Assembly: GCA_965649115.1 (NCBI GenBank)
Contig: CBFGJN010000003.1
Coordinates: 1 to 55,507, forward strand
Length of the DNA: 55,507 nt
Source: a candidate division WOR-3 bacterium
GTDB taxonomy: Bacteria; Hydrothermota; Hydrothermia; LBFQ01; DSFT01
Direction: 5' to 3'
Both the position numbers and the translations under genes were made by a program. Of the stretch, positions 22,133 through 50,260 are shown one piece after another. The notes beneath the pieces are model-generated. The model made no database searches, was not told the DNA's origin, and saw nothing but the letters and a program-made list of their open reading frames with translations. Every line of letters begins with the position of its first letter. Positions within the stretch are counted from its first letter, which is position 1.

Positions 22133-22245
22133 TGATGAGTCTAGTAATTCTGGAAACATATATTTTTCCCACCCACCCTATGAATAAGCCTTCGGCTTAT
22201 AAATGCCCATTTTTCGGCCTAGGGGGGCTTTGCCCCCCATAAAAT
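22133..22245 (+). mobile_element. MITE-like repeat, copy G (left two-thirds)
   Basis: TGATGAGTCTAGTAATTC, CCCACCCACCCT, AAGCC-TTC-GGCTT, GGGGGGC-TTT-GCCCCCC. Confidence 0.85.
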
Positions 22246-22265
22246 CTTTAACTGAATTTATGAGG

Positions 22266-22305
22266 GAATTTTAGGGTGGATGGGGAAGTAAAGAAGAATA
22301 GATAA
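22266..22305 (-). mobile_element. MITE fragment in opposite orientation to G
   Basis: ATTTTAGGGTGGATGGGGAAGTAAAGAAGAATA matches the reverse complement of the element left arm. Confidence 0.6.
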
Positions 22306-22313
22306 CTCAACAT

Positions 22314-22319
22314 TAAAAT
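22314..22319 (+). promoter_or_regulatory. -10-like box TAAAAT
   Basis: 6 nt before ATG 22326. Confidence 0.6.
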
Positions 22320-22325
22320 TTTAAT

Positions 22326-23309
22326 ATGTTTTTCATTATAGCTTATAAACTTATGGATATATTTCCAAACTTGAAATTTAACAATCCTGTGTATATGATA
22401 AATGAGCCTTCTGATGACAAAACTTTTTATGTAGTTGAACAGGTCGGAATTATCTTAAGAATAAAAAATAATAAAATTGATACTTTCTTAGATGTCAGAG
22501 ACAAAGTCAAATATGGTGGTGAAATGGGACTCTTAGGTATGGCTTTAAGCCCAAAATTTAAAGAAGACGGAAAGTACTATATTTCATATACGAATAAACA
22601 AATGTTTTCAATTGTTGAAGAAAAGGATATTAAAAATAAAAATTATTCACGAATTTTATTAAAAGTTAAACAACCTTTTGCAAATCATAATGGTGGTGAT
22701 ATAAAATTTGGTCCTGATAATTATTTGTATGTTGGCCTTGGAGATGGAGGTTCAGCAGGAGACCCCTTAAACAATGCTCAAAATCCTAACAGTTTATTAG
22801 GTAAAATTTTAAGAATAGAGGTAAATACGGGAAAAATTGAAATTTACGCATCGGGTTTGAGAAATCCTTGGCGTTTTTCATTTGATGGAAAAACATTATG
22901 GGTTGGAGATGTAGGACAGGATAGATGGGAGGAAATAGATACTATTATAAGAGGAGGAAATTATGGCTGGAGATGTTATGAGGGAAATCATCCTTATAAC
23001 TTAAATGGTTGTAAAAGTAAAGAGAATTATATTTTTCCTGTTTGGGAATATAGAAGAGATAATGGAAATTGTTCTATTATAGGTGGGTATGTATATAGAG
23101 GAAATGAGTTAAAGGAATTAATAGGAAGTTATATATTCGGTGATTTTTGTTCTGGAAGAATTTGGGCTTTAAAGAAAATAAATAATGGTTTCAAGTCAGA
23201 ACTTCTAATAGATAGTGAAATAAACATATCTTCATTTGCTATTGACAACCAAAATGAAATATATGTTATAGACCATACAGGCGGGAAAATTTATAAAATT
23301 GTTAAGTAG
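22326..23309 (+). CDS. PQQ-dependent glucose/sorbosone dehydrogenase family
   Basis: GEMGLLGMALSP, NHNGGDIKFGPD.YLYVGLGDGG, GLRNPWRFSFD, GGNYGW. Confidence 0.92.
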   Translation: MFFIIAYKLMDIFPNLKFNNPVYMINEPSDDKTFYVVEQVGIILRIKNNKIDTFLDVRDKVKYGGEMGLLGMALSPKFKEDGKYYISYTNKQMFSIVEEKDIKNKNYSRILLKVKQPFANHNGGDIKFGPDNYLYVGLGDGGSAGDPLNNAQNPNSLLGKILRIEVNTGKIEIYASGLRNPWRFSFDGKTLWVGDVGQDRWEEIDTIIRGGNYGWRCYEGNHPYNLNGCKSKENYIFPVWEYRRDNGNCSIIGGYVYRGNELKELIGSYIFGDFCSGRIWALKKINNGFKSELLIDSEINISSFAIDNQNEIYVIDHTGGKIYKIVK

Positions 23310-23320
23310 ATAGAATATAA

Positions 23321-23430
23321 CCCACCCTATAAATAAGATTTCAGCTTATAAAAACCCCAATTTTTGCCTCGGAGGCTTCGGCAGGGGGCTAACACACCCC
23401 CTTAAAAACTCCCTATAAAAACCATAATTT
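23321..23430 (+). mobile_element. MITE-like repeat, degenerate internal copy H
   Basis: CCCACCCTATAAATAAGATTTCAGCTT..AAAACCCCAATTTTTGCC..GGGGGCTAACACACCCCC; no TIRs. Confidence 0.65.
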
Positions 23431-23464
23431 CAATTGGCTTGTAAATATGGATTTTTCTTACCTT

Positions 23465-23470
23465 TAAACT
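23465..23470 (+). promoter_or_regulatory. -10-like box CCTT-TAAACT
   Basis: 7 nt before sufD ATG. Confidence 0.65.
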
Positions 23471-23477
23471 TTTCATT

Positions 23478-24707
23478 ATGAATCAAATTAAATTTTTAGA
23501 CGAAATAAAGGAAATTGCTCTTAAAACTTATAAGGAAAGTGAGCCTTTAAGGAATAAATATGTTGATTATAGAATTTTAAAACCAGAAAATTTCTCAACC
23601 CAAACAGCTATAAAAGAAGAGCTTCCAGATTATATAAAATCAATTATTAAAGAGGAGAAGGATACAATTGGTTTTGCTTTGTTTGTAAATAATGAACTTA
23701 TTTCAATTGATTACGATAGTAATTTAAAAGAAAAAGGACTTATTATTGAAGAGTTAATTTATGCTTTCAATAACATTGATTTTAATTTCCCTGCTTATTT
23801 TTCAAAAATAGTTAGTCCAAGTGAAGATAAATTTACTGCAAATCACTATTTAAATTTGAAAACGGGGCTATTTATATATGTTCCAAAAAATTTAATTATT
23901 GAGAAACCTTTTCAAGTCTTGTTTGTCCATAGTTCAAATGAAGTAGCAATTTATCCTCATATTTTAATAGTTCTTGATAAAGGTTCAAAATTCAGTTATG
24001 TTGATGAGGCACACTCCATAAATGAAAAAATTACAGGTTTTTATAGTCCAATTTATGAAATTTATATAAATGACGAATCAATTTTAAACTTCTCTTCAAT
24101 TTACGACCTTAATTTAAATGTCTATTCATTTTCAAGAAGAAGGGCTATTTTAAACAGATATAGCAAAGGTTATATAAATCACATATGGATAGGTGGGAAA
24201 TATAGTGTAAATTATATGGAATTATTTATGAATGGAGAAGGTTGTGAAGGAGAAGATACCCAAATTTTCTTCGGAAGAGATGAGCAATTTTATAGTTTAT
24301 ATTCAAAATTAATGCATAGAGTTGGGAATAGTGTTGGAAATGTTCTTGTAAGAGGTGCTTTAAAAGATAAAGCAAGAAGTCATTTTGATGGTTTAATTAA
24401 AATTTTTCCAAAAGCTCAAAAATCTAATGCATATTTACAAGAGCATACAATTTTATTAAATCCAGGGACAAGATCTGATGCTATTCCAGGTCTTGAAATA
24501 TCAGCTAACGATGTTAGATGTACTCACTCTGCAACAGTTAGCGAAATAGATTATGAAAAATTGTTTTATCTAAGATCAAGGGGAATAGATGAAAATAATG
24601 CTAAAAAATTAATGGTTCTTGGTCATTTTGAATTTGCAATTGAAAAAATACAAATAGATAAGGTCAAAAACAGATTCTTGGAGATTTTAAATGACAATTT
24701 TGAATGA
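23478..24707 (+). CDS. sufD: Fe-S cluster assembly protein SufD (SufBD family)
   Basis: RGALKDKARSHFDGLIKI, PGLEISANDVRCTHSATV, LFYLRSRGI. Confidence 0.88.
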   Translation: MNQIKFLDEIKEIALKTYKESEPLRNKYVDYRILKPENFSTQTAIKEELPDYIKSIIKEEKDTIGFALFVNNELISIDYDSNLKEKGLIIEELIYAFNNIDFNFPAYFSKIVSPSEDKFTANHYLNLKTGLFIYVPKNLIIEKPFQVLFVHSSNEVAIYPHILIVLDKGSKFSYVDEAHSINEKITGFYSPIYEIYINDESILNFSSIYDLNLNVYSFSRRRAILNRYSKGYINHIWIGGKYSVNYMELFMNGEGCEGEDTQIFFGRDEQFYSLYSKLMHRVGNSVGNVLVRGALKDKARSHFDGLIKIFPKAQKSNAYLQEHTILLNPGTRSDAIPGLEISANDVRCTHSATVSEIDYEKLFYLRSRGIDENNAKKLMVLGHFEFAIEKIQIDKVKNRFLEILNDNFE

Positions 24708-25404
24708 AATTGAATTTTTAGAACCAAGAGAGATAGTTCCACATGAAGAACCATCTATTGAAAAATTAAATGCCTTAATATCAAAAATAAAAAATGATGG
24801 ATTTATAAATCATCCGATTTTAACTACAAAAATAAAAAACAAAATTATTATTCTAGATGGAACGCATAGATTTTTTGCTCTAAAAAACTTGAATGTTAAA
24901 TTCATCCCTATTCAGCTTGTTAATTATCATAAAAGAAGAATAAAGTTAAGTAGTTGGGCTTGGCAATTTAATGTTAATCAAGAATTTAAAAATTTTTTAA
25001 AATCATTTGATATAAAAATGATTTATGATATTAGAATGCCTAAGAATTATGAAATTCTTATAAAATCAAAAGAAACATTTTTGGTAAAATTTTCAGACAA
25101 ATTCAAATTCCTAAATTTTTTAAATGAGATTAAAAATTTACACTATGAAAGAGTTTTAAAAGAACACCTAAATGAAGGGATAATTTTTCCAAAATTAAAT
25201 CATAATTTTTTTCTATTTCTTGCCAAAAATAATTTAAAAATTCCATCAGGAATTACGAGGTTTAAGGTTCAGAATAGAATTTTGTATTTAAAAGTTCCTT
25301 TAAATGTCCTCAATGATGAAAATTTAATTCTTGAATTTAAAGAACATTTAAAAAACAGGAAATTTAGAATTTACGAAGAAAGTGTATTAGTATTTGAAGA
25401 ATAA
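24691..25404 (+). CDS. ParB-like domain protein resembling SbnI/SerK free L-serine kinases
   Basis: PHEE, INHPILTT, ILDGTHR, IPIQ..SSW and C-terminal GITRFKV.NRIL.LKVPL..FRIYEE.VLV, matching SbnI features as I recall them. Confidence 0.7.
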   Translation: MTILNEIEFLEPREIVPHEEPSIEKLNALISKIKNDGFINHPILTTKIKNKIIILDGTHRFFALKNLNVKFIPIQLVNYHKRRIKLSSWAWQFNVNQEFKNFLKSFDIKMIYDIRMPKNYEILIKSKETFLVKFSDKFKFLNFLNEIKNLHYERVLKEHLNEGIIFPKLNHNFFLFLAKNNLKIPSGITRFKVQNRILYLKVPLNVLNDENLILEFKEHLKNRKFRIYEESVLVFEE

Positions 25405-25451
25405 AATCTTCGGTTTATAAATCTTCGCCCTCTTAAAAATCCCTATTAAAT

Positions 25452-25567
25452 TGCTGTGTCTAGTAAAAGGCTTAATTTTATAGGGGGTTATTTGAGGGGG
25501 CGTAGCCCCCTACTGAAAATAGGGTGGGTGGGAGAAATATAGAAAAATAGGTATTCGACAAATAGCA
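25452..25567 (-). mobile_element. MITE-like repeat, short copy I1
   Basis: TGCTGTGTCTAGTAA...GGGGGC-GTA-GCCCCC...AGGGTGGGTGGG...GACAAATAGCA. Confidence 0.75.
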
Positions 25568-25600
25568 GTGTGAGTGAAAAGCTTTTTTAAATCATTGGAG

Positions 25601-25752
25601 CATTTATAAAGTTATTGATTTAATGGGGAATTTTAGTGGGGCAAAGCCCCCCCATGGCATAAAAATGGGTATTTTAAAGCCGAAGGCTTAAATATAGGGT
25701 GGGTGGGAAAAATATAGTAAAATAAATAGTTTTGGAATTACTAGACAAAGCA
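25601..25752 (-). mobile_element. MITE-like repeat, copy I2
   Basis: GGGGC-AAA-GCCCC, AATGGGTATTTTAAAGCC-GAA-GGCTT, AGGGTGGGTGGG, GAATTACTAGACAAAGCA. Confidence 0.85.
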
Positions 25753-25767
25753 ATTTTAAACTGATAT

Positions 25768-26637
25768 TTACCGAATACCAAATCTTCTAAAAACAAAATA
25801 AAATCCAACAAATCCACTTAAATAACCACTAAAAAGCCTCCAAAGAACTATAACAAAACCTACAAATTTAAAATCCAAATTCTCACTTATTATAATTGAA
25901 GAAATAAGCTCTGAAATACCAAGACCACCAGGTGTAATTTGAAAATAAGTTGAAAGTTGCATAATTAACTGCTTAAAAAAAGCTTCTAAAAATCCAATTT
26001 TTATAGAAAATGCTTTCAGAACAATATAAAGGAAACTTAAATAAAAGGATTGAATAGGGAAGCTAATTAACAAAGCTAAAAACAAGAATTTGAAATCTAT
26101 TTGTTTTAAGGCTTGACGATAATCCTTTTTCGTTAAGACAAAAACTAGAAACAACATAACAATAATAAATGAATAAAAAAGAAATAATTTTGAAATTGTT
26201 GTTTTTAAAAAACCAATAACAAATGGTAAAAATGTTAAATATGGAGTAAATATACAAATACCTCTTAAAAGAATTAGACTTACTATTTCAGAAACCTTAA
26301 ATCCATATTTATTTAAAAGCCATATCTGATAAGGAAGACCACCACTACCAAAAGGTGTGATTAATCCAAGAAAAGCACCTGATGTTATAAATTCAATAGA
26401 TGTCAATAAGTCTAAATTTTTTTTTAAACCTTTTGAAATAATTTTTAATCTCAAACCATCAAGAACTAAAAACAAAAACCAATTCAAAAGACCTAATAAA
26501 ATAAACAAAAAATTAACATAAGAAACAATTTTCAAAAATTCTTTTCCTGAAAAAATCAAAATCCATACGAAACTAATAACAACATAAAAAATTATAAAAA
26601 TTTTGAAGAGTCTAAAAAATTTTTCAAAATTAGGCAA
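25768..26637 (-). CDS. Lysylphosphatidylglycerol-synthase TM / flippase-like (UPF0104) protein
   Basis: Polytopic; TPFGSGGLPYQ, TPGGLGISE, LWRLFSGY. Confidence 0.85.
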   Translation of the reverse strand: MPNFEKFFRLFKIFIIFYVVISFVWILIFSGKEFLKIVSYVNFLFILLGLLNWFLFLVLDGLRLKIISKGLKKNLDLLTSIEFITSGAFLGLITPFGSGGLPYQIWLLNKYGFKVSEIVSLILLRGICIFTPYLTFLPFVIGFLKTTISKLFLFYSFIIVMLFLVFVLTKKDYRQALKQIDFKFLFLALLISFPIQSFYLSFLYIVLKAFSIKIGFLEAFFKQLIMQLSTYFQITPGGLGISELISSIIISENLDFKFVGFVIVLWRLFSGYLSGFVGFYFVFRRFGIR

Positions 26638-27670
26638 TTATTCCCGCTCCTATTAAATAATCACCAATATAAATGGCACCAATTTGTCCTCTTGCTGGCG
26701 AAAATTGAGGCTTTTCAAATTCAACCTCTGCATAATTTCCATAAATTCTTATAAGAGCATTAGCAGGCTTATGAACATTTCTAATTTTTACTTGCGCTAT
26801 AAATTCATTTTCAACTTCAACAAATAAATTTAAATTTTCTAATTTTATAAAAGAACTATAAGCATCTTCTTCAAAACCAATAACTACAACATTTTCATTT
26901 GGAATAATATCAATTACATAAGCTCTTTTACCAAGAGCGATATTTAAACCTCTTCTTTGTCCAATTGTATATAAGGCATAACCCTTATGTTTTCCAATTA
27001 TATTTCCAAATTTATCTACAAAATAACCCTCCTTTGGTTGATAATTCCCTTTTTCAATTAGAAAGGAACGATAATCATCATCAACAAAACAAATATCCAT
27101 AGAATCAATTCTTGTAGCATTTATAAGTCCAAGTTCAAGGGCAATTTTCCTAACTTCATTTTTTGTAAAGTTTCCAATAGGCAAAATTAAATTATCAACC
27201 ATTTCTCTTGTTAAATAACTTAAAAAGTAAGATTGGTCTTTATTTTCATCTATTCCTTTCATTATTACTTTTTTACCTCTAAACTCACCTATTCTTGCAT
27301 AATGGCCTGTTGAAAATTTTGCATTTATACTTTTAGCATAATCAAATAAAACTTTCATTTTATAATCTCTATTACAGAATACACAAACATTTGGTGTCCT
27401 TCCTTTAAGATATTCATTTATAAACATTCTTACAATTCCATTTTTAAATTCTTTTGAATAATTTATCACTTTGAAAGGGATATTAAATTTTTTAGCAACT
27501 TTATAAGCAAGCCTTAATGCCTCAATTGAACAACATGCTCTTTTATTTTTACTTTCATCATAAAGAACAACATTAACTCCAATAACATCATATCCCATTT
27601 CTTTTAATAAATATATTGCAACCGAACTATCAACACCTCCTGAAATTCCAAGAACAACTTTATTATTCAT
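26630..27670 (-). CDS. mnmA: tRNA-specific 2-thiouridylase
   Basis: SGGVDS, TPNVCVFCN, TGHYAR, KDQSYFL, DICF, YTIGQRRG. Confidence 0.96.
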   Translation of the reverse strand: MNNKVVLGISGGVDSSVAIYLLKEMGYDVIGVNVVLYDESKNKRACCSIEALRLAYKVAKKFNIPFKVINYSKEFKNGIVRMFINEYLKGRTPNVCVFCNRDYKMKVLFDYAKSINAKFSTGHYARIGEFRGKKVIMKGIDENKDQSYFLSYLTREMVDNLILPIGNFTKNEVRKIALELGLINATRIDSMDICFVDDDYRSFLIEKGNYQPKEGYFVDKFGNIIGKHKGYALYTIGQRRGLNIALGKRAYVIDIIPNENVVVIGFEEDAYSSFIKLENLNLFVEVENEFIAQVKIRNVHKPANALIRIYGNYAEVEFEKPQFSPARGQIGAIYIGDYLIGAGIIA

Positions 27671-27681
27671 AATTTATTAAA

Positions 27682-27687
27682 ATTTTA
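27682..27687 (-). promoter_or_regulatory. -10-like box GCTT-TAAAAT
   Basis: 11 nt before mnmA ATG. Confidence 0.55.
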
Positions 27688-27692
27688 AAGCA

Positions 27693-27834
27693 TTTATTTT
27701 TCCTTATTTTGCCCGCCCACCCTGAAAATAGGGAGCTTTACCCCCCTATAATCCCCCATAAAATCAATAGTTTTATTGAAATTTTCGTAAGTCATTGATA
27801 ATCAAGCATTTAGCAATGATTACTGGACAAAGCA
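27693..27834 (+). mobile_element. MITE-like repeat, copy J (left TIR lost, internal deletion)
   Basis: GCCCGCCCACCCTGAAAATA..CCCCCCTATAATCCCCCATAAAATCAATA..TTGATAATCAA..ATTACTGGACAAAGCA; nearly identical to copy O. Confidence 0.8.
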
Positions 27835-27854
27835 CTTAAAAACCCCTTTTTATA

Positions 27855-27945
27855 GTAAAGCCTATGACTTTAAAATACCTATACTTTTGCCTCGTAGGGC
27901 TCTACCCCTATAACCGAAAAAAGACTCAATAAAATGGGCATTTAT
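27855..27945 (+). repeat. Degenerate MITE fragment
   Basis: TAAAGCCTATGACTTTAAAATACCTATACTTTTGCC..GTAGGGCTCTACCCCT. Confidence 0.55.
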
Positions 27946-27956
27946 ACAATGAACTT

Positions 27957-27962
27957 TAAAAT
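27957..27962 (+). promoter_or_regulatory. -10-like box ACTT-TAAAAT
   Basis: 7 nt before ATG 27970. Confidence 0.65.
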
Positions 27963-27969
27963 TTAAAAA

Positions 27970-30120
27970 ATGCTTTTAATACTAATTATTCAAATTTTCT
28001 ATGAAGATTTTGAAAATTCCTTATTTCCACCAACTGGATGGACAAATACAGGAACAAGAAGCACACTTTGGGTAAGAAGGACAAGTGGTGTAGCTTTTGG
28101 AACTGCTTCTGCTGGTGTCTCAGTTGCTCAAACTTCATCAGAAACTGGGACTGCAATCCTTCAAACACCAATTATAAACCTTCCATCAATAAACCCAAAT
28201 GATACGATAATTTTCTCATTTTATTATAAACTTCCATCTGTTGGAGGTGCTTTTGATACAAGATTTAGATCAACAGATACATTAAAAGTTCAAATATCAA
28301 ATGATGGCAATAATTGGACAAATTTAATTGTTTGGGATTCAACAAGTTTATATACAGGAGCAAATAATCAACCAAAAAAGGTTCAATTTAATATATCCTC
28401 CTATCAAAATACAAATATTTATATTAGATGGATTTTTATAGATAATACATCACTAACGGATGCTTCTAATTCATATTTCAATATAGATTCTATTTTTATC
28501 GTAATTAAGCAAGGTCTTCCACAATCTCCATATATTCCAATAGACAGCATTCAAAAAACTGTTTATCAAGGAACTGATAGTTCAATTTTTTCAGGACAAA
28601 GTATTAGAACAAGTGGAATAATTGTTGAAGTTGGTAAATATAATTCAAAGGGGTTTCATATCAAAATGAAAAATGGTGGTCCATATTCAGGAATATATAT
28701 TTATACGACGAATTTAGTAGGATTATCAAAAGGTGATTCAGTTATGGTAGAAGGAATTGTAAAAGAGTACTATAAATACACAGAAATTGTTCCCTCAAAT
28801 ATCCAAATTATTAGTCATAATAACTCATTTAAAATTGATACACTGACAACAGATTTAATAAGTTCATCAAATCCAGATAATGCAGAAAAGTACGAAGGTG
28901 TTTATATCTTCATAAAAAAGGCTATTGTGATAGATAATACAAATTCTTATAGATATGAAATTAAAAATGGAATTTTAAGTGCTTACTTGTCAAAATTTAA
29001 TGTTCCAAATTTAAATTTAAATGATATCATTTCAGTTTGGGGTGTCCTGGTTTATGAATATGGAGAATATAGAATTTATGCAGATAGCATTTACATTCAT
29101 CAATTTCCTTATAAAATTGATAAAATCATTTATGGTTATTACGATAGTCTAATTTTGAAATTCAAAAAAGTTTTTAGTCCAAATTCAAATTCCTATATTA
29201 AATTTTCTGTTTCCAATTTAATGAGGGATACAACAATTTTTGACACTGATAGTTTTAATTTTACTATTAAACTAAGTTCGCTTAACAGAGGTCTTTACAA
29301 TGCCAATATCCAAATGATTTATAATAATGATACTACAAATTTCTCATTTTTATTACCATATCCAAATGGTTTTAGTTGTTTATTGGTAAATGAATTTGAT
29401 GATTATCCAACCAAAGATGAATTTATTGAAATAAAGAACTATTGCCAATATCCAGTAAATATTGGAGGATTATATGTAAAAAGTTATTCGGGAACCAATA
29501 TCTATACAAGTTCCCCATTTGATAATATAACCTTAGAGCCAAATGGAATTTTCGTTTTCATATATGATACATTTCAAAATAATATATGTCAAAGATATAA
29601 CTTAAATAATTGTAAGGCTTTAAGTAAATGGACTTATATAAATTATCAACAGCCTATGGTTATATCAACACCAGAAGGTTTCGCAATTGACTCCATTTGG
29701 TACGATTCTTATTGGGGAGGAAGAGATCCATATACAACTATAAGGGTTAATCCAAACGAAAAAGGTTGGACGAGAAGTGCATGGGGACCCTCATCTATTC
29801 CAGGAGGAACACCAGGAAAAGATAACGATATTTACATAAGCGATGAACAAGATATTGAGGTAAATAAAAAAGATTTAGCAAAAGGAGATATTTTAAGTTT
29901 TGCTTTTAATTTAAAGGAAGAAACAAATAATGTTTATATTTATCTTTACGATGATGCAGGAAGGTACATAGATAGAATCTATTATGAAAAAAATTATATC
30001 ACAAGAAAAGGAATTGTGTTTTATAACACATCAAGGCTAAAACCAGGAATTTATATTGTTGCAATTACAGTTGATGGAAAAACAAGAAATAAAATTGTTT
30101 TTAGAATAAGACCAAAATGA
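27970..30120 (+). CDS. Secreted multidomain protein: MAM/adhesin-like N-terminus, OB folds, lamin-tail domain, T9SS-type CTD
   Basis: YEDFENSLFPPTGW; GQSIRTSGIIV and AEKYEGVYI OB-like units; LLVNEF..DEFIEIKN (LTD); IYLYDDAGR..LKPGIYIVAI. Confidence 0.7.
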   Translation: MLLILIIQIFYEDFENSLFPPTGWTNTGTRSTLWVRRTSGVAFGTASAGVSVAQTSSETGTAILQTPIINLPSINPNDTIIFSFYYKLPSVGGAFDTRFRSTDTLKVQISNDGNNWTNLIVWDSTSLYTGANNQPKKVQFNISSYQNTNIYIRWIFIDNTSLTDASNSYFNIDSIFIVIKQGLPQSPYIPIDSIQKTVYQGTDSSIFSGQSIRTSGIIVEVGKYNSKGFHIKMKNGGPYSGIYIYTTNLVGLSKGDSVMVEGIVKEYYKYTEIVPSNIQIISHNNSFKIDTLTTDLISSSNPDNAEKYEGVYIFIKKAIVIDNTNSYRYEIKNGILSAYLSKFNVPNLNLNDIISVWGVLVYEYGEYRIYADSIYIHQFPYKIDKIIYGYYDSLILKFKKVFSPNSNSYIKFSVSNLMRDTTIFDTDSFNFTIKLSSLNRGLYNANIQMIYNNDTTNFSFLLPYPNGFSCLLVNEFDDYPTKDEFIEIKNYCQYPVNIGGLYVKSYSGTNIYTSSPFDNITLEPNGIFVFIYDTFQNNICQRYNLNNCKALSKWTYINYQQPMVISTPEGFAIDSIWYDSYWGGRDPYTTIRVNPNEKGWTRSAWGPSSIPGGTPGKDNDIYISDEQDIEVNKKDLAKGDILSFAFNLKEETNNVYIYLYDDAGRYIDRIYYEKNYITRKGIVFYNTSRLKPGIYIVAITVDGKTRNKIVFRIRPK

Positions 30121-30614
30121 ATATTCTTTGGGCTCCTTGGAGATTTAAGTACGTAGCAAATGTTAATGATAAAAGTGAATGTCCATTTTGTGAAAAACCA
30201 AAAAAAGAGCCATCTCTTGAAAATTTAGTTTTATACAAATCAAAATTTTCATTTATTATACTAAACCTTTTCCCATATAACACTGGACACTTAATGGTTG
30301 CTCCTTATAAACATACATCAGAAATTTCTTCACTAACAGATGAAGAATGGTTAGATATAACTAAGCTTTTAAATTTATCAGTTGAAATTATAAAGGAAGT
30401 TTATAAACCCCAAGGATTTAACATAGGAATGAACATAGGTAGAATCGCTGGTGCAGGAATTGAAGAACATGTTCATATTCATATTGTTCCCAGATGGGCT
30501 GGTGATACAAATTTTATGCCTATTATTTCACAAACGAAAGTTATTCCAGAAAGTCTTGAAGATACATATAAAAAATTATCAGATTGTCTTAAAAAATATG
30601 AAAATCGTTTATAA
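30117..30614 (+). CDS. HIT family hydrolase (Ap4A phosphorylase-like)
   Basis: LWAPWR, CPFC, NLFPYNTGHLMV, HVHIHIVPRW. Confidence 0.92.
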   Translation: MNILWAPWRFKYVANVNDKSECPFCEKPKKEPSLENLVLYKSKFSFIILNLFPYNTGHLMVAPYKHTSEISSLTDEEWLDITKLLNLSVEIIKEVYKPQGFNIGMNIGRIAGAGIEEHVHIHIVPRWAGDTNFMPIISQTKVIPESLEDTYKKLSDCLKKYENRL

Positions 30615-30987
30615 AGCGGAAATATCTTCTGCTCACAGGATATTAAACCATAAAGGAAAGTGTAGAAATTTACATGGACATAATTACTTTATTATTGTTG
30701 AAATTGAAAGTGACGAACTTGATGAAAATGGTTTTATAATTGACTTTTTAGAAATAAAGAAAATAATTAATGAACTTGACCATAAAGTGATTTTACAAAA
30801 AAACGACCCCTTAATTGAAAAACTAAAAAGTGAAAGTTTGTTTATAATGGAGGAATCACCAAGTTGTGAAAATATAGCTAAAATTATTGCAATCAAAATA
30901 TCACAATTATTAAAAAACTACAAAAAAATTAAGGTAAGAGTTTGGGAAAGTAGAAGAAGTTATGCAGAATTTGAATTAAAAATTTAG
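30598..30987 (+). CDS. queD: 6-carboxytetrahydropterin synthase (PTPS/QueD)
   Basis: SSAHR..GKCRNLHGHNY, ELDH, PSCENIA, VWES; start moved to MKIVYK. Confidence 0.9.
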   Translation: MKIVYKAEISSAHRILNHKGKCRNLHGHNYFIIVEIESDELDENGFIIDFLEIKKIINELDHKVILQKNDPLIEKLKSESLFIMEESPSCENIAKIIAIKISQLLKNYKKIKVRVWESRRSYAEFELKI

Positions 30988-32768
30988 CTAATTGTTTGAA
31001 TTTCAACTAAATTTCTATAAACTTCACATCTATCAATAAGTTCTTCATGCTTTCCAATATCTAAAATTCTGCCATTTTTCATAACAATAATTTTATCAAC
31101 AAATAATATCGTGCTTATTCTATGGGCTATAATAATAGCAGTCTTATCAAACAAGAAATTTTCAATAGCATTTATAATTTTTTCTTCACTTTGAGCATCT
31201 AAATTACTTGTAGGTTCATCAAAAAAAATAATTTCAGGATTTTTTAAAATAGCTCTTGCTATTGTTAATCTTTGTTTTTGACCACCAGATAAATTCGCTC
31301 CACCCTCTGAAATTTTATAAAAATAACCATCTTCAAGACTTTCAATAAACTCACTTATATTTGCTAATTTACAGGCTTTTTTAACTTCTTCTAAACTTAT
31401 ATTTTTTGAAAATGTTAAGTTTTCATAAATAGTTCCTTCAAACAAAAATGGTTCTTGGGGAACAAAGCTAATTTTGCTTCTATAACTTTCAATATTATAA
31501 TCCCATAAATCAATTCCATCTATCAGAACCTTTCCCGAAGTTGGTTTTAATAAACCTGCTAAAATTTCAATTAATGTTGTTTTTCCTGCTCCTGAAAGTC
31601 CAACAATTCCAATTTTTTCCCCTTTTTTTATTGTAAAATTTATATTGTCTAAAATCATTTTATTACCATAATAAAACGAAACATTAACAACCTCAATTTT
31701 TTCCTTTAATTTTTCAAATATAATTTGACCACCTTTTGGTTCATCGGGTAAGCTCAAAAATTCCAAAATTCTATTATAAATTGAAACACCTCTTTGAATG
31801 TGGTTATTTGCCTTAAAAATTCGCTTAATTGGACTAATACTTGAAATAACTAAAAGTAAAAAAACAATAAATTGATCACTTGTTAGTTGAGATTTTAAAA
31901 AAACCAAATTTGAAACATAAATCAAAAATAAAATGATAGGGACAGAAACAATAAATTCTGAAAAATTTGAAGAAAAACTGCCAAGAGCTTCAAGTTTCAA
32001 AACTGCATTAAAGTAATTTTTTGAAAGTTTTTCAAATTTAGAAATTTCTTTACTTTTATTTGAAAAAATTTTTATAACCTTTATTCCTCTAACTACTGAA
32101 CCTATATAAGAACCTATTTGTGAAACATTCTGATTTAATTTATTCCACCTATAATTCATAGCTTTTGAAATTAAGAACAATAACAACCCCAAAGGAATTG
32201 CAATTAGAATGCCAAATAACAAAAGATTAAAGGCAATAATAACCAAAATTGAAATATAAATTACTAATTTTACAAACGAAAACAAAAATTCAAATACACC
32301 TTCGGTTAAAGAACCTTTTAATAATCTAATATCATTTGTAAATCTACTAATAATTTCACCTGAACTATGTGTATTTATCCAATATGTAGGAAGTAATAAA
32401 AGCTTTGAAAACATTTTATTTCTTATTTCCATCATCATTTTTTCTTCAACTATTGTTGTTATAACATCTTTTAAAAATAGAACTAAAAATTTTAAGAGAA
32501 ATATAAAGAAAGTAAGAATTGCTATTCTGATTATTGCTACATGTGGCTCAACATTAAAAAATAATTTAGCTATTAAATTATCTAAAAATTTTAAATTTTC
32601 AACATTAGAAAATAATCTAGGAGGTTCTTGACTATTTAAAATTACCCTTAAAGCAATCGGAAGTGAAGAAAAAGAAATGCTTTCAATTAATGAACCAAGC
32701 GAAACCAAAAAAATTAAAAAAATTACACTAATTTTTCTTGAAAGAACTAAACTCAAAAAGTTTTTCAT
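30984..32768 (-). CDS. MsbA-like ABC transporter (TMD plus NBD)
   Basis: GEIISRFTND, GLSGAGKTT, LSGGQKQRLTIARA, FDEPTSNLD. Confidence 0.92.
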   Translation of the reverse strand: MKNFLSLVLSRKISVIFLIFLVSLGSLIESISFSSLPIALRVILNSQEPPRLFSNVENLKFLDNLIAKLFFNVEPHVAIIRIAILTFFIFLLKFLVLFLKDVITTIVEEKMMMEIRNKMFSKLLLLPTYWINTHSSGEIISRFTNDIRLLKGSLTEGVFEFLFSFVKLVIYISILVIIAFNLLLFGILIAIPLGLLLFLISKAMNYRWNKLNQNVSQIGSYIGSVVRGIKVIKIFSNKSKEISKFEKLSKNYFNAVLKLEALGSFSSNFSEFIVSVPIILFLIYVSNLVFLKSQLTSDQFIVFLLLVISSISPIKRIFKANNHIQRGVSIYNRILEFLSLPDEPKGGQIIFEKLKEKIEVVNVSFYYGNKMILDNINFTIKKGEKIGIVGLSGAGKTTLIEILAGLLKPTSGKVLIDGIDLWDYNIESYRSKISFVPQEPFLFEGTIYENLTFSKNISLEEVKKACKLANISEFIESLEDGYFYKISEGGANLSGGQKQRLTIARAILKNPEIIFFDEPTSNLDAQSEEKIINAIENFLFDKTAIIIAHRISTILFVDKIIVMKNGRILDIGKHEELIDRCEVYRNLVEIQTIS

Positions 32769-32780
32769 TTTTGTTATGAA

Positions 32781-32786
32781 ATTTTA
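32781..32786 (-). promoter_or_regulatory. -10-like box CCTT-TAAAAT
   Basis: 12 nt before ATG 32768; 22 nt from MITE K. Confidence 0.6.
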
Positions 32787-32808
32787 AAGGATTTAATTAA
32801 ATGAATTC

Positions 32809-33013
32809 TGCTGTGTCCAATAATTCTGAAAGTATTTATTTTATTATGTTTTCCCCACCCACCCTGAAATAAAGGCTACGCCTTTAAAATACCCATATTT
32901 CGGCTTTGGGGGGCCTCGCCCCCCTTAAAAACCCCCTTTAAATCAATAATTCTCTTAAAATTTTTGTAAGTTGTTGATAATCAATAACTTAACACTATTT
33001 ATTGGACAAAGCA
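32809..33013 (+). mobile_element. Full-length MITE-like element, copy K (205 bp)
   Basis: TIRs TGCTGTGTCCAATAA / TTATTGGACAAAGCA; hairpins 32871-32885 and 32908-32924; dyad 32968-32990. Confidence 0.92.
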
Positions 33014-37423: not shown

Positions 37424-37627
37424 TGCTGTGTCTAGTAATTCTAAAAACTATTTATTTTACTATATTTTCCCACCCACCCTGAAATTAAGCTTTCAGCTTA
37501 AAAATACCCATTCTTATGCCTTGGGGGGCTTCGCCCCCCATTAAACCCCCGTAAAATCAATAATTCCAATAAAATTTTTATAAGATATTGATTATCAATT
37601 ACTTAACACTATTTATTGGACAAAGCA
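37424..37627 (+). mobile_element. Full-length MITE-like element, copy L (204 bp)
   Basis: TGCTGTGTCTAGTAAT...TTATTGGACAAAGCA; AAGCT-TTC-AGCTT; GGGGGGC-TTC-GCCCCCC. Confidence 0.92.
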
Positions 37628-37635
37628 AGAGTTAG

Positions 37636-37815
37636 TGCTTTGTCTAGTAATTCTAAAATTATGATTATTTCTATCTTTCCCCACCCACCCTAATAATAAG
37701 CCTTCGGCTTGAAAATATCCATATTTCGGCAGAGGGGGCAAAAATCAATAATTTCCTTTAAATTTTTATAAGTTATTGATTGTCAAGCATTTAAAACTAT
37801 TTACTAGACAAAGCA
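37636..37815 (+). mobile_element. MITE-like element, copy M (tandem with L)
   Basis: TGCTTTGTCTAGTAA / TTACTAGACAAAGCA perfect 15-bp TIR; 8 bp from L; L+M flanked by TAATTTTTT direct repeats. Confidence 0.92.
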
Positions 37816-39712: not shown

Positions 39713-39719
39713 AAAGAAA

Positions 39720-39725
39720 ATTTTA
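39720..39725 (-). promoter_or_regulatory. -10-like box GCTT-TAAAAT
   Basis: 7 nt before ATG 39712, in the 36-nt gap after kup. Confidence 0.65.
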
Positions 39726-39748
39726 AAGCTGAAACAAAATGGATACTT

Positions 39749-41557
39749 TTATATAATAACACGACTTATTACACCGTGCATTTTATGTGAAGGAAAATTA
39801 TAGAATTCATCAAATCTTGGTGATATTCTCTTAATAAATGCATAAATTTTGTAAAACCATTTATCAGTTATAATTTCTTCAAATCCATAAAATATAACCT
39901 TTTCATCTATTCCACTTTCTTTCAATATTTCTTCAACATTAACAAATTCAAGATAGCCAAATTCAATTTTAAATAAATCTAATCCATAAAGTAATTCTTT
40001 TTCAAAACCAAATTTAATACCAAATGGTTCATCTTTTTTTACTAATGAAAGAAATACATTCCTTTCGTAAATTATAGCTTGATTGAACATTACATTTATA
40101 ACATAAGGAGGAACTTTTTGATAATCTCTTACTAAAAATACTGCTGTTCCCTTAATTTTGTTAGCATTTTCATAAACATTATTGAACATAATTTCAAATT
40201 CTTTGAAATCAATTGGTTGTAATTTTTCATAAACTTTTCTTTGTCCTTTTGTATAATTTATTATAATAAAAATTAGAAATATAGCAATAACGATAGGTAT
40301 ATAAGCACCACTTGGGATTTTTAAACTTCCCGAAAGAACAAACATTAAATCACAGATTGTTACAAAAACTGAAAGAACAAAAAAAATCCATTCCTTTTTA
40401 TAAAAATTCAAAATGGAAAGCAAAATTCCTGTTATTAGCATTGTTAAAGCTACTGAAAAACCATAAGCATGACCAAGATTTTCAGATTTCTTGAAAATAA
40501 GTACAACTAAAACTACACAAATAAATAAACTATAATTTACAAAACTTGAATAAATTTGCCCATATAGCTCTTTTGAAAGATGTTTAAATTTAATTCTTGG
40601 GAAAAGACCTAAGTTTGATGCTTGAAAAAATAATGAAAAAACTGCGGTTATAATAGCTTGGGAGGCTATTATGGTAGCAAGTATAGTTAGAATTAAAAAC
40701 GGAATATAAAGATATGGAAAATTCTCATTAAACATTTCAAAAAAAACATTTTGAGAATTTGGATTTTTTATCAAATAAACACCTTGTCCAAGATAATTAA
40801 GAACTAATGATGGAAAAACAAAAAAGAACCAAGATTTTTGAATTCTTTCTTTTCCAATATGACCTATATCAGAATATAATGCTTCACCTCCTGTTGCTGC
40901 AAGTATAACCTCTGATAAAACGATAAATGATAAAAACCCATTTTTTATTATAAATTCAATGGCAAATATAGGATTTAGAGCAATTAAAATGCTTGGCATT
41001 TTTATTGTTTCTAAAAGACCTACTATGAATAACGCTAAAAACCAAACTAACATTATAGGACTAAATGCTGGATAAATTTTATCTGCTCCACCTTTTTGGA
41101 TATAGAATAAAAATATAAATATAACTATTGTTATGGCTATTATAAAATTTTGGTCTAGATTTTGAAAATAACTTATGACTTTTATTCCTTCAACTGCACT
41201 TAATACTGAAATGGCAGGCGTTATAATACCATCACCTGCTAAAAAAGAAATTCCAAAATAAATAAGTAAAGAAATAAAAGAAACAACTCTTAAATTCTTT
41301 ATATTTTTTAGTGCTATTTCACCTAAAATTATTTGACCACCTTCACCTCTTATGCTAAAACGCATGGCTAAAAATGCATATTGAATTGAAACAATAATTA
41401 CAAGTGTCCAAAAAATCAGTGAAACAATACCATAAATATCTTCTTGTTTTGGTTTTGTAAGAAGAGCAATAATAGTTAAGGTGTATATAGGACTTGTCCC
41501 GATATCTCCAAATACAATTCCAAGAGGTCTAAAAATATCAGAAAAGAATTTTTTCAT
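39749..41557 (-). CDS. kup: KUP/HAK/KT potassium transporter
   Basis: LGIVFGDIGTSPIY, GEGG, GDGIITPAISVLSAVEG, GGEALYSDIGH. Confidence 0.96.
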   Translation of the reverse strand: MKKFFSDIFRPLGIVFGDIGTSPIYTLTIIALLTKPKQEDIYGIVSLIFWTLVIIVSIQYAFLAMRFSIRGEGGQIILGEIALKNIKNLRVVSFISLLIYFGISFLAGDGIITPAISVLSAVEGIKVISYFQNLDQNFIIAITIVIFIFLFYIQKGGADKIYPAFSPIMLVWFLALFIVGLLETIKMPSILIALNPIFAIEFIIKNGFLSFIVLSEVILAATGGEALYSDIGHIGKERIQKSWFFFVFPSLVLNYLGQGVYLIKNPNSQNVFFEMFNENFPYLYIPFLILTILATIIASQAIITAVFSLFFQASNLGLFPRIKFKHLSKELYGQIYSSFVNYSLFICVVLVVLIFKKSENLGHAYGFSVALTMLITGILLSILNFYKKEWIFFVLSVFVTICDLMFVLSGSLKIPSGAYIPIVIAIFLIFIIINYTKGQRKVYEKLQPIDFKEFEIMFNNVYENANKIKGTAVFLVRDYQKVPPYVINVMFNQAIIYERNVFLSLVKKDEPFGIKFGFEKELLYGLDLFKIEFGYLEFVNVEEILKESGIDEKVIFYGFEEIITDKWFYKIYAFIKRISPRFDEFYNFPSHKMHGVISRVII

Positions 41558-42564
41558 AGATATTCTTCAAAGTTCATGTTTTTTAACAAATTAACAATAT
41601 CTCTAACATTTTGAGCATTTTCTTTTGGTATAACTAGAACTGCATCTTTTGTTTTAACAATAATTAGATTTTCAACACCATAAACACCACAAATTCCATC
41701 TTTTGAAATTATTATACAATTTTTCGTATTAATTTTTGCCACTTTCCCAAGTATCACATTTCCATTTTCATCTTTTTTGAATATATTTTCAAGTGAAGTA
41801 TATAATCCTAAATCTTCCCATTCAAAACTTGCTTTGATTAGAGCGATATTGTCAGATTTTTCCATAATAGCATAATCAATTGATATATTTCTAACATTTT
41901 TATAAAATTCTAATTTGTTTTTTGAACTTTCAAAAGCTTGAATAATATCATAAGCAAATTTTTCATAAGCTTTTATAATTGTTTTTTTATTAAATATGAA
42001 CATTCCAGAATTCCAAAAGAAACTGCCTGATTGAATGTACTCTTTTGCTTTTTCAAAGGAGGGTTTTTCGTGAAATTTTTTTACTTTATAGACATTATTT
42101 CTTATTTCATCACTAACTTCAACATATCCAAACCCCGTTTCAATTCTCGTTGGTTTTATACCAAAGACAACAATATAATCCATTTTTGCAATTTCAATTC
42201 CTAAATTAACATCATCTTTAAAAGCTTGAAAATTTTTAATAATATGGTCGGATGTTTGAACAAAAATTATATCATCATCTTTAATTTTTAAATTTCTTAT
42301 TGAATAGTAAATAGCTGGTGCAGTATTTTTACCAAATGGTTCTATAATAAATTTAGCGTCTTTTATGATTTTCTTTATTTGTTTTTGAAGTTCTTGTGTC
42401 GTAATGATATATACCTCTCCAAAAAGTTTTGCTCTTTCATAAGCCTCTAAAATTAATGGTTTTCCAGTAAATAAATCTAATAATTGTTTTGGTTTATTTT
42501 TTCTTGAAAGGGGCCAAAATCTTTCTCCTTTTCCTCCTGCTAATATAAAAGAAAGGATTTTCAT
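41554..42564 (-). CDS. manC: Mannose-1-phosphate guanylyltransferase
   Basis: LAGGKGERFWPLSR..PKQ, EPFGKNTAPA, FHEKP, WNSGMF, SIDYAIMEK. Confidence 0.93.
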   Translation of the reverse strand: MKILSFILAGGKGERFWPLSRKNKPKQLLDLFTGKPLILEAYERAKLFGEVYIITTQELQKQIKKIIKDAKFIIEPFGKNTAPAIYYSIRNLKIKDDDIIFVQTSDHIIKNFQAFKDDVNLGIEIAKMDYIVVFGIKPTRIETGFGYVEVSDEIRNNVYKVKKFHEKPSFEKAKEYIQSGSFFWNSGMFIFNKKTIIKAYEKFAYDIIQAFESSKNKLEFYKNVRNISIDYAIMEKSDNIALIKASFEWEDLGLYTSLENIFKKDENGNVILGKVAKINTKNCIIISKDGICGVYGVENLIIVKTKDAVLVIPKENAQNVRDIVNLLKNMNFEEYL

Positions 42565-44496: not shown

Positions 44497-44607
44497 TAAA
44501 AAATTATTTATTTTATTATTTATCCCCACCCACCCTATATTCAAGGCTCCGCCTTAAAAACCTCGCCCCCCTAAAAGCCCCCCATTATTTCAAGAATTCT
44601 GATAAGA
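44497..44607 (+). mobile_element. MITE-like repeat, internal copy N (no TIRs)
   Basis: CCCCACCCACCCTATATTC-AAGGC-TCC-GCCTT..CCTCGCCCCCC. Confidence 0.75.
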
Positions 44608-45764: not shown

Positions 45765-45929
45765 TGCTGTGTCTAGTAATTCTGAAATATAGATTATTTC
45801 TTATTTTGCCCGCCCACCCTGAAAATAAGGCTTCGCCCCCCTATAATCCCCCATAAAATCAATAATTTCTTTAAAAATTTTATAAGTTATTGATAATCAA
45901 GGATTTAACAATAATTATTGGACAAAGCA
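45765..45929 (+). mobile_element. MITE-like element, copy O (165 bp) with perfect 9-bp TSD
   Basis: CTTATAAAT|TGCTGTGTCTAGTAAT...ATTATTGGACAAAGCA|CTTATAAAT. Confidence 0.95.
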
Positions 45930-48535: not shown

Positions 48536-48541
48536 ATTTTA
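48536..48541 (-). promoter_or_regulatory. -10-like box ACTT-TAAAAT
   Basis: 6 nt before ATG 48529. Confidence 0.7.
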
Positions 48542-48564
48542 AAGTTTAGAGAATTATTGCAAGG

Positions 48565-48589
48565 ACTTTCAGAATTATTAGACATAGCA
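48565..48589 (-). repeat. Solo MITE left-end fragment
   Basis: Reverse complement TGCTATGTCTAATAATTCTGAAAGT matches the start of copy K. Confidence 0.7.
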
Positions 48590-48605
48590 CACACCATTTA
48601 AAAAT

Positions 48606-48784
48606 TGCTTTGTCTAGTAAATAATATTAAGTTGCTGATTAATTATGAATTTTACGGGGGGACTTTATGGGGGGCAGAGCCCCCCACTGCCGAAAAATGG
48701 GCATTTTAAAGCCGTAGGCTTTAATTTTGGGCGGGTGGGGAAAACATAGAAAAATAAATAGTATCAGAATTATTGGACAAAACA
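48606..48784 (-). mobile_element. MITE-like element, copy P with perfect 9-bp TSD
   Basis: TTTAAAAAT|TGCTTTGTCTAGTAA...TTATTGGACAAAACA|TTTAAAAAT; GGGGGGC-AGA-GCCCCCC; AAAGCC-GTA-GGCTTT. Confidence 0.92.
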
Positions 48785-48799
48785 TTTAAAAATCACCTT

Positions 48800-48805
48800 T
48801 AAACT
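48800..48805 (+). promoter_or_regulatory. -10-like box CCTT-TAAACT
   Basis: 5 nt before TTG 48811 (or 8 nt before TTG 48814). Confidence 0.6.
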
Positions 48806-48810
48806 TTCAA

Positions 48811-49518
48811 TTGTTGATAATTTTCCTTTTATTTGACTTACCAAATGACCCAAAAACATTATATGAAGTTGCATTAAATGAATTTAAAAACAAAAATTAT
48901 AAGCAAGCTGAAAAAATTTTAAAAAGAATTATTTATTCGTTTTCACCTAATGAATGGACTGATAAAGCACAGTTTTATTTAGCACTTTTATATTATGAAA
49001 TAAAAAATTATGAACTTGCAAAGATTGAAGCAGAATTCTTTGTAAATAATTTTAAATATAGTGAATTTTATCCAAATGGTTTAATTTTACTTGCAAAAAT
49101 TTATTATAAATTATCACCAAATCCACATAAAGATATATCTGAACTTAACAAAGCAATTGAAATTTTAAATAGAGTTAAAACATTGTATCCAAGTTATAGT
49201 CAATCAGCTGATAGTATAATGTTCCTAATTAGAAAAAAATTTGCCCAAAAAATTTTAATTTCTGCCAATGTTTATAGAAACATTGAAAAACCAAAATCAG
49301 AAGCAATTTACCTTGAATACTACTTAAATAATTACATTGATATTGAACCTGATTCAGTAGCATATAGACTACTTGAAATATACGAAACTTTAAATGAAAA
49401 AGAAAAAATTATTAATTTAACTGAATTAATTCTCAAAGGTGATAATTTTTCTTCATGGATAAAAAAAGTAGCCCTTGAGAAACGAGATAAATATGGCTAT
49501 CGCTCTGATAGGAGGTAG
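48811..49518 (+). CDS. bamD: Outer membrane protein assembly factor BamD
   Basis: TPR pattern LYEVALNEFKNKNY..DKAQFYLA..FVNNFKYS; KFAQKILISANVY; no lipobox visible. Confidence 0.8.
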   Translation: MLIIFLLFDLPNDPKTLYEVALNEFKNKNYKQAEKILKRIIYSFSPNEWTDKAQFYLALLYYEIKNYELAKIEAEFFVNNFKYSEFYPNGLILLAKIYYKLSPNPHKDISELNKAIEILNRVKTLYPSYSQSADSIMFLIRKKFAQKILISANVYRNIEKPKSEAIYLEYYLNNYIDIEPDSVAYRLLEIYETLNEKEKIINLTELILKGDNFSSWIKKVALEKRDKYGYRSDRR

Positions 49519-50065
49519 ATTTGATCCAATTCATATTGGGCATCTTATTATAGCAGAAGATTTATTAGAGATTTTAAATGTTGAAAAAGTTATATTTCTT
49601 TTAAGTCATAATCCACCGCATAAAGTTGTTTATTCAAGCTTTGAAGATAGATTTAACATGATAAAAATAGCTATCAATAACTATAAAAAATTTGAAGTTT
49701 GGGATATTGAAAAAAGAATGAATTTAGAAAAAAGTTATAGTTTTTTAGTACTAAAAGAAATTTTAAGGATAGGTTATAAAAATTTATACTTTGTAATAGG
49801 TTCAGATCAATTTGAAAACTTTAAAAGTTGGTATAATTACGAGGAGATTCTTAATATGGTTAATGTTGTTGTTGTTCAAAGACCTTCAAAAAATTATAAC
49901 TATCCAAGAGAATTATTAAACAAAGTCAAAATTTTAAATAATAGATTAATTGAAGTTTCATCGTCGGAAATTAGGAAAAGAATTAAAGAAAATAGAGAGT
50001 TTAAATTTCTTGTTCCTTATGGTGTTTATGAGTATATTATAGAGAAAAAATTGTACCTTATTTGA
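49493..50065 (+). CDS. nadD: Nicotinate-nucleotide adenylyltransferase
   Basis: GGRFDPIHIGH, PPHK, FVIGSD, VSSSEIR; start moved to MAIAL. Confidence 0.93.
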   Translation: MAIALIGGRFDPIHIGHLIIAEDLLEILNVEKVIFLLSHNPPHKVVYSSFEDRFNMIKIAINNYKKFEVWDIEKRMNLEKSYSFLVLKEILRIGYKNLYFVIGSDQFENFKSWYNYEEILNMVNVVVVQRPSKNYNYPRELLNKVKILNNRLIEVSSSEIRKRIKENREFKFLVPYGVYEYIIEKKLYLI

Positions 50066-50084
50066 AATTGAAGCATTTAAATTT

Positions 50085-50260
50085 GGCTTTGTTCAGCGAT
50101 TATTGTTAAGTATGATAATCAATCACCTATAAAAAATTCGCTAAAATGCTTGAAATAATGGAGTGAATTTAGGGGGAGCGGAGCTCCCATAGCCGAAATA
50201 TGGGTATTTATAAAGCTCCGCTTTATTTCGTAGGGTGGGTGAGCAAAATCATAATTACTT
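50085..50260 (-). mobile_element. MITE-like repeat, degenerate copy Q
   Basis: GGCTTTGTTCAGCGAT end, TGATAATCAA, GGGAGC-GGA-GCTCCC, AAATATGGGTAT, AAAGC-TCC-GCTTT, AGGGTGGGTG. Confidence 0.8.

Follow-up and report, generated by a model that had tools for sequence, protein, structure and literature searches.

Why should two very small hairpins inside an intergenic repeat keep their arms paired while the letters of those arms change? The question is raised by a 55,507-nucleotide stretch of DNA from a candidate division WOR-3 bacterium (assembly GCA_965649115.1, contig CBFGJN010000003.1, here C3; the whole stretch is called the window below), which holds 20 of the 731 copies and fragments of a miniature inverted-repeat transposable element (MITE) found in the genome. 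Within its length of about 205 nt the element carries, both of them internal, hairpin 1 (hp1, consensus columns 65-77, AAGCC-TTC-GGCTT) and hairpin 2 (hp2, columns 101-117, GGGGGGC-NNN-GCCCCCC). An earlier reading of the letters alone (the sequence-only reading) had concluded from the varying but paired stems that the structure is under selection, and had named single-strand or cruciform recognition and an insulating terminator as candidate roles. The explanation that we prefer, with somewhat better than even confidence, is that pairing in hp1 is constrained in the active (source) lineage of the MITE, that mutations concentrate in the hp2 loop, and that both hairpins decay neutrally after insertion.

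Covariation in hairpin 1

Stem counts for hp1 were taken over 548 copies, of which 396 have a perfect Watson-Crick stem. The perfect stems are spread over several alleles (AAGCC 259, AAGGC 104, AAAGC 15, AAGCT 9, GAGCC 7), and double changes that preserve Watson-Crick pairing occur in four of the five pairs. At pair 68-74, where CG was counted 352 times, GC 141, CC 9 and GG 4, the corrected mutual information (MI-APC) ranks fourth among 20,910 column pairs. Linkage in this MITE family decays with distance, and comparison was therefore limited to column pairs 3-13 nt apart (n = 1,975); in a Fisher test matched in this way, the four variable hp1 pairs take ranks 2, 12, 13 and 35. Double changes are in clear excess (observed against expected: 19 vs 2.3, 12 vs 0.7, 25 vs 7.6).

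Shuffling and sliding controls for the named structure (150 randomly chosen copies, 500 shuffles) gave the same picture: pairing extends to 91.1% of cells, as compared with 85.7 ± 0.4% after shuffling, and the covariation score of 0.173 was reached in 0 of 500 shuffles (0.099 ± 0.005), while partners slid along the alignment scored 0.045-0.062. RNAalifold predicts hp1 unprompted. An alternative pairing of the hp1 5' arm with the second TTCGGCTT repeat (columns 92-99) showed no matching covariation.

A third triloop palindrome, hp3 (columns 161-183, AAGTTrTTGA-TAA-TCAAyAACTT, centred around TTGATAATCAA), is conserved in the element and served as an internal control. No compensation was seen in it: its variable pair is GC in 140 copies, AC in 85, GT in 84 and AT in 11, so that doubles are under-represented and mismatches tolerated. 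hp1 shows the covariation expected of a constrained helix, and this signal is real and confined to its paired columns; hp3 does not show it, nor does hp2 with its nearly invariant stem.

Two side observations concern these parts of the element. hp3 looks more like a putative double-stranded protein-binding site than like a folded structure. The 3' arm of hp1 continues into CTT(T/A)(A/T)AAAT (columns 73-87, e.g. 32880-32894), and about half of the copies match a putative promoter motif, CTTTAAAAT, there.

Stem and loop of hairpin 2

hp2 is perfect in 152 of the 257 copies over which its stem was counted, nearly always as GGGGGGC/GCCCCCC, and its pairs show a weak excess of double changes because this stem hardly varies. 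No stretch of the MITE changes faster than the hp2 loop, where nearest neighbours differ at 16.9% of positions (4.5% overall). This loop occurs in both orientations (plus strand: TTC 50 and GAA 33, TTT 43 and AAA 17, AGA 37 and TCT 10, TCC 13 and GGA 13), and exact inversions were found between copies more than 92-96% identical elsewhere. In a sister species (G002; 667 kb compared at loci L011-L050, 87-90% sequence identity) the hp2 loops are mostly TTC (16 of 24), which suggests that their diversity arose during a burst of the MITE in the source genome (see below).

The hp1 loops are locked in orientation (element plus strand: TTC 360, TTT 61, TAC 44, GAA 1). Over the 567 hp1 loops counted the closing pair is CG in 460, and over the 298 hp2 loops in 254. 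The sequence-only reading had described the loops as always 3 nt long and often GNA on one strand. The first of these statements fails for some copies, with 4-nt hp2 loops and the hp1 variant AAGCGGACGGCTT as exceptions; the second describes hp1, where GNA lies on the element minus strand in 428 copies (75%), and fails for hp2, where both loop orientations occur and GNA is on the minus strand in 73 copies and on the plus strand in 53. The loops follow a broader rule, purine-N-A on either strand, rather than GNA on a fixed strand: 269 of the 298 hp2 loops are purine-N-A, and once these loops are oriented the base beside the closing C (T, the A of purine-N-A) is kept in 96%, the middle T in 61% and the last C in 46%. 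Nearest-neighbour models give TTC and GAA loops equal energy. As a check on conversion within copies, the hp1 and hp2 loops of the same copy were compared, and they are uncorrelated.

The variant AAGCGGACGGCTT recurs in about 10 copies (e.g. contig positions C80:1504-1300 and C61:4584-4789). A G-G clash at its closing pair gives an effective 5-nt loop, and simple inversion or substitution does not explain its origin.

Decay after insertion and proposed mechanism

What becomes of the hairpins once a copy has settled? The fraction of perfect hp1 stems falls with copy divergence (85, 78, 62 and 62%), as do three control sets of ten columns over the same divergence classes (86, 73, 59 and 39%; 86, 75, 67 and 44%; 92, 86, 64 and 69%), and the perfect fraction of hp2 drops faster. 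Resident copies are thus neither protected by host selection nor repaired by themselves. Covariation in hp1 together with neutral decay in place fits a constraint on the propagating element, and does not fit a host terminator.

Internal deletions are present in 47% of two-ended copies, with recurrent end points between G/C runs (columns 91-131, 74-111, 81-106 and 38-62). Derivatives without hp2 (91-131 or 81-106 deleted) and a fusion of hp1 with hp2 (74-111 deleted) have identical junctions and target duplications at 5-11 loci each, which indicates that the shortened derivatives are themselves mobile. Derivatives lacking hp2 and carrying target duplications occupy at least 11 loci; hp2-less copies have therefore transposed, and transposition does not need hp2. 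Of 237 two-ended copies, 209 keep at least one GC-cored triloop hairpin, and no amplified class without any such hairpin was found among these 237.

We propose that hp1, a 5-bp stem with a C:G-closed triloop reading GAA on the element minus strand, is constrained in its pairing among source copies. Alleles changed on both sides (AAGGC/GCCTT, AAAGC/GCTTT, AAGCT/AGCTT, GAGCC/GGCTC) would have been amplified, mismatched combinations would stay rare, and short-tract exchange would reshuffle hp1 alleles between copies. hp2 would be a very stable 7-bp G:C hairpin whose stem is kept in the main lineage, though unneeded for mobility; its 3-nt loop would be a mutational hot spot in which inversion fits intrastrand template switching and transitions fall at two of the three positions. 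Both hairpins would then decay neutrally once inserted. The selected property may be that one strand folds into a compact DNA (or RNA) mini-hairpin, and such folding may aid propagation of the element or tolerance of new insertions, rather than termination for the host.

Number and origin of the hairpin 1 changes

Is the hp1 signal the product of many events or of few? Both alleles of pair 68-74 are present in the sister species (CG 57, GC 14), so that the main swap, from C-G to G-C, predates the species split. Near-identical copies differ blockwise, at columns 68 and 74, at 68, 74, 90 and 94, or at 60, 63, 64, 68 and 74, and in one pair of copies, 98.7% identical, columns 68 and 74 are the sole differences. 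Such blockwise differences indicate mosaic exchange or a one-step templated change, not repeated compensation by point mutation. As for the minor alleles, the 16 copies with AAAGC/GCTTT do not group together at identities of 88% and higher, and AAGCT and GAGCC are partly clonal.

Several points weigh against a constraint on hp1 pairing. Few independent compensatory events lie behind the signal, and the double-changed cells come mostly from one pair. The two columns of that pair, 68 and 74, are just 6 nt apart, and unpaired columns (188-191, 30-33) are also linked at short range. Where the identity of a copy with its nearest neighbour is 90% or more, the two share their hp1 allele in 82-91% of cases, and ordinary dimorphic columns behave alike. 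The core of the G-C allele, GGC-NNN-GCC, is that of hp2, so a single templated copying from hp2 is possible; more generally, template switching or gene conversion demonstrably acts on the hairpins, and the alleles could arise without selection. A search for a DDE transposase (PF01609) came up empty both in the source genome and in the genus (four genomes), an absence that is weak evidence in such fragmented assemblies, which resemble metagenome-assembled genomes. Finally, a function of hp1 in propagation is pure inference.

The step in the sequence-only reading from covariation to selection on structure is borne out as far as the hp1 statistics and the lack of compensation in the control palindrome go; it is weakened by the main swap, a single old dimorphism spread blockwise. 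That reading would have been refuted by an absence of covariation, with loop inversion or gene conversion explaining the variants. What was found is mixed: covariation is significant for hp1, yet inversion and conversion are both seen.

Alternative explanations

The rival that survives best, which we take seriously while considering it a good deal less probable, is a purely mutational origin of functionless hairpins: compensated alleles would arise by one-step template switching, by copying of the hp2 core into hp1, or by short-patch gene conversion among the roughly 700 copies, and then hitch-hike. About 45% of copies have inverted hp2 loops, and the exact inversions between otherwise closely similar copies are a template-switch footprint (PMC8794818). 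Alleles are swapped blockwise between near-identical copies, the hp1/hp2 fusion deletions show that slippage occurs between the two cores, and R-type loops in hp1 (GGA, AGA) occur only alongside AAGGC and AAAGC alleles. Such processes would not by themselves account for resident stems that go unrepaired and decay like control columns, for a longer palindrome, hp3, that gathers A-C and G-T mismatches uncorrected, or for the three minor double-transition alleles, which are not copyable from hp2. Loop inversion is almost nil in hp1 (a single GAA against 360 TTC), and the missing correlation between the two loops of a copy also argues against this rival.

Another possibility, bolder and in our view unlikely, is that hp1 and hp2 are extruded in vivo as single-stranded DNA (ssDNA) mini-hairpins, that the loop spectrum is a footprint of damage, and that hp1 is a cis-acting signal for promoter-adjacent, orientation-specific integration. 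Transitions affect the exposed middle base and the 5' purine in 39-54% of copies, and the A of the sheared purine-A pair in about 4%. Judged from sequence, a role of the hairpins as ssDNA or cruciform mini-hairpins, as had been suggested, is possible, and the base pattern of the loops speaks for it to some degree, if indirectly.

Slightly more doubtful still is a role for the host at the RNA level, in which hairpins on the element minus-strand transcript would block read-through or shield the upstream mRNA at its 3' end, in the manner of REP and SPRITE. The placement of the element is suggestive: of the 189 full copies, 159 point their left end at the start of a gene that is transcribed away from them, and at 123 a co-directional gene has its 3' end on the right side. 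Read on the minus strand, hp1 carries GAA with AAUUUUA behind it, and hp2 folds very stably (-9 kcal/mol at 65 °C). hp1 itself, however, has marginal stability at 65-75 °C (-2.5 to -1.2 kcal/mol). The T-rich tract behind hp1 to which the sequence-only reading appealed in proposing an insulating terminator has only AATTTTA as its consensus, and no columns vary more than those that it occupies (59-64). A scan of 22000-41900 for intrinsic terminators (a GC-rich stem with a U-tract, 5 or more T in 8, directly after it) flagged no hp1 or hp2, their consensus tails being AATTTTAG (hp1, minus strand) and TTTAAACC or AAAGCCGA (hp2). One-sided stem changes give G-U on the plus and on the minus strand equally often (46 vs 46), with no excess over C-A on either and hence no RNA strand indicated, and the terminator proposal finds no footing here. 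The neutral decay of resident hairpins, the free orientation of the hp2 loop and the tolerance of hp2-less copies at many loci speak against a host role as well.

As a side observation, canonical terminator patterns are not enriched in the scanned 20 kb (5 found, against 6.5 ± 2.9 in shuffles); the organism may end transcripts otherwise, in which case unusual signals, including those of a host RNA role, may serve.

A G-quadruplex or i-motif in place of the hairpins, with hp1 doing no more than compact the long loop that separates GGG (columns 85-87) from GGGTGGGTGGG (columns 47-57), is very improbable: the element plus strand does have one G-run against six C-runs of three or more, giving the minus strand six G-runs, and the columns of the C-runs reach 91-96% conservation, with variable spacer bases inside them, but derivatives without the CCCACCCACCC run (columns 38-62 deleted) have transposed to 7 loci and the C-runs decay like other columns. 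Examples of the runs in the window lie at 32853-32863, 32892-32894, 32918-32924 and 32931-32935, and the G-run-rich, quadruplex-prone minus strand is the coding strand of the downstream gene.

Comparison with known systems

Prokaryotic MITEs derived from the IS903 group are known, such as MITEAba12 of ISAba12, and the Correia elements of Neisseria are the classic MITE of about 200 bp (PMC10969869). The present element resembles these in being a non-coding unit of about 205 bp with terminal inverted repeats, 9-bp target duplications and stably folding transcripts or strands, present in hundreds of intergenic copies, preferentially upstream of genes. It differs from them in its defined pair of GC-rich triloop hairpins within an AT-rich element, one covarying and the other with a hypervariable and invertible loop, and in that a partner transposase was not found in the genome or genus.

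C:G-closed GNA triloops such as d(GCGAAGC) form compact, extraordinarily stable DNA mini-hairpins (PMC13037366, PMC3201870). The likeness, drawn from sequence, lies in a C:G closing pair in 81-85% of copies, in the GAA, GTA or GGA loop that 75% of hp1 copies have on one strand, and in the A of the would-be sheared pair, which is the most conserved loop base in both hairpins. In hp2, unlike those mini-hairpins, GNA makes up just 42% counting both strands, and AAA and AGA are equally common.

Template-switch mutations create or maintain hairpins and invert loops, and an exact loop inversion between unchanged arms is their footprint (PMC8794818; PMC5453318). Reverse-complement loops between unchanged perfect arms, and one-step changes on both sides of the stem in near-identical sequences, are seen here too. 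The substrate, however, is a multi-copy transposon in which gene conversion from one copy to another could supply such changes equally well, and the resident stems are not kept perfect.

The REP and BIME sequences of enterobacteria and SPRITE of Streptococcus pneumoniae are stem-loop repeats at gene 3' ends that affect termination or mRNA stability (PMC10969869, PMC2267715). Like these, the MITE provides stem-loops in many intergenic regions, frequently on the downstream side of a co-directional gene. Its hairpins, by contrast, have no U-tract, lie inside a transposon with inverted ends and target duplications rather than in stand-alone palindromic units, and show no sign of selection in resident copies.

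Significance

Overall, the mobile element is of an ordinary kind, and the hairpins are a detail of it that is now well documented. If propagation depends on hp1 pairing, transposition of the IS5/IS903 type would rely on a DNA or RNA hairpin inside the element as well as on the inverted ends, which lies outside the textbook mechanism, and there may be a relation to the unusual promoter-side targeting of this MITE. If extrusion is the true explanation, the “conserved central hairpin” modules of other IS903-type MITEs would suggest that this transposase group has a general requirement which has gone undescribed. In the hp2 loop a thermophile offers a natural record, replicated several hundredfold, of loop inversion and loop-specific transitions, and this record would be useful for the in vivo study of template switching and hairpin extrusion. 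If neither the hp1 requirement nor the hp2 record holds up, the case is a caution: a few old compensated alleles, amplified and exchanged in mosaic fashion, can produce very strong covariation statistics in multi-copy elements.

Hairpin copies in the window

All hp1 stem variants that the sequence-only reading had listed (AAGCC/GGCTT, AAGGC/GCCTT, AAGCT/AGCTT, AAAGC/GCTTT) were found again in the window at the positions it gave, as were the usual hp2 stem and its variant in copy Q.

Table 1. MITE copies in the window and the hairpins that they carry.
Feature	Position	Strand	Details
Full-length copy K	32809..33013	+	nhmmer profile match, columns 2-206; element plus orientation, left terminal inverted repeat TGCTGTGTC first
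hp1 of copy K	32872..32884	+	AAGGC TAC GCCTT, G-C allele at pair 4
hp2 of copy K	32908..32924	+	GGGGGGC CTC GCCCCCC
hp3 of copy K	32968..32990	+	AT-rich triloop palindrome AAGTTGTTGA TAA TCAATAACTT, internal control
Full-length copy L	37424..37627	+	hp1 AAGCT TTC AGCTT 37487-37499; hp2 GGGGGGC TTC GCCCCCC 37523-37539
Copy M	37636..37815	+	hp1 AAGCC TTC GGCTT 37698-37710; internal deletion removed hp2
Deletion derivative	45765..45929	+	hp1 5' arm fused to hp2 3' arm (AAGGC TTC GCCCCCC); flanking duplication CTTATAAAT
Truncated copy	22133-22246	+	hp1 AAGCC TTC GGCTT 22186-22198; hp2 GGGGGGC TTT GCCCCCC 22222-22238
hp1 of minus-strand copy 25752-25603	25677..25689	-	window plus strand reads AAGCC GAA GGCTT
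Minus-strand copy	48784-48606	-	window plus-strand reading: hp2 GGGGGGC AGA GCCCCCC 48669-48685; hp1 AAGCC GTA GGCTT 48709-48721
hp2 of copy Q (50250-50086)	50174..50188	-	window plus-strand reading: GGGAGC GGA GCTCCC, compensated A-T pair
hp1 of copy Q	50212..50224	-	window plus-strand reading: AAAGC TCC GCTTT
Further copies with hp1 AAGGC/GCCTT	127-2; 44501-44607		

The element family and its host genome

The source genome is 1.85 Mb long with 27.6% G+C; its 45 tRNAs average 63% G+C, which indicates a thermophile. A profile search, built from full copies, found the 731 copies and fragments of the MITE to total 99 kb, or 5.4% of the genome. The consensus ends, TGCTnTGTCyAGTAAT ... ATTAyTGGACAAAGCA, carry terminal inverted repeats of about 17 bp, and 525 matches resembling these repeats were found across the genome. 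Target-site duplications of 9 bp are present at independent loci (e.g. cttataaat at 45765-45929; elsewhere gtagaaaat and tttgtttgt). By its inverted ends and 9-bp duplications the element is a predicted non-autonomous MITE of the IS903 group (IS5 family). A long parent insertion sequence was considered and rejected: the orphan matches to the inverted repeats are deletion derivatives, none belongs to a long element, and PF01609 is absent from genome and genus, as noted above.

The sister species has 90 copies in the 667 kb compared, about three times fewer per Mb than the source genome. Of the syntenic gaps with a MITE, 34 are occupied in the source genome only, 5 in the sister only and 8 in both; this imbalance and the low copy number in the sister indicate that the family has been very active, in a lineage-specific burst in the source genome. 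The 8 shared intergenic gaps were examined for evolution of the hairpins in place, and being rearranged they gave no clean orthologous pairs. Rfam gave no match at gathering score in the window, and chance-level matches (E > 1) at 37380-37860. Element columns 186-192 (e.g. 32993-32999) fall into two tightly linked haplotypes, CAATAAT and CA(T/C)TATT; this linkage, the second-strongest in the element, follows no pairing logic, and illustrates that short-range linkage alone can be very strong.

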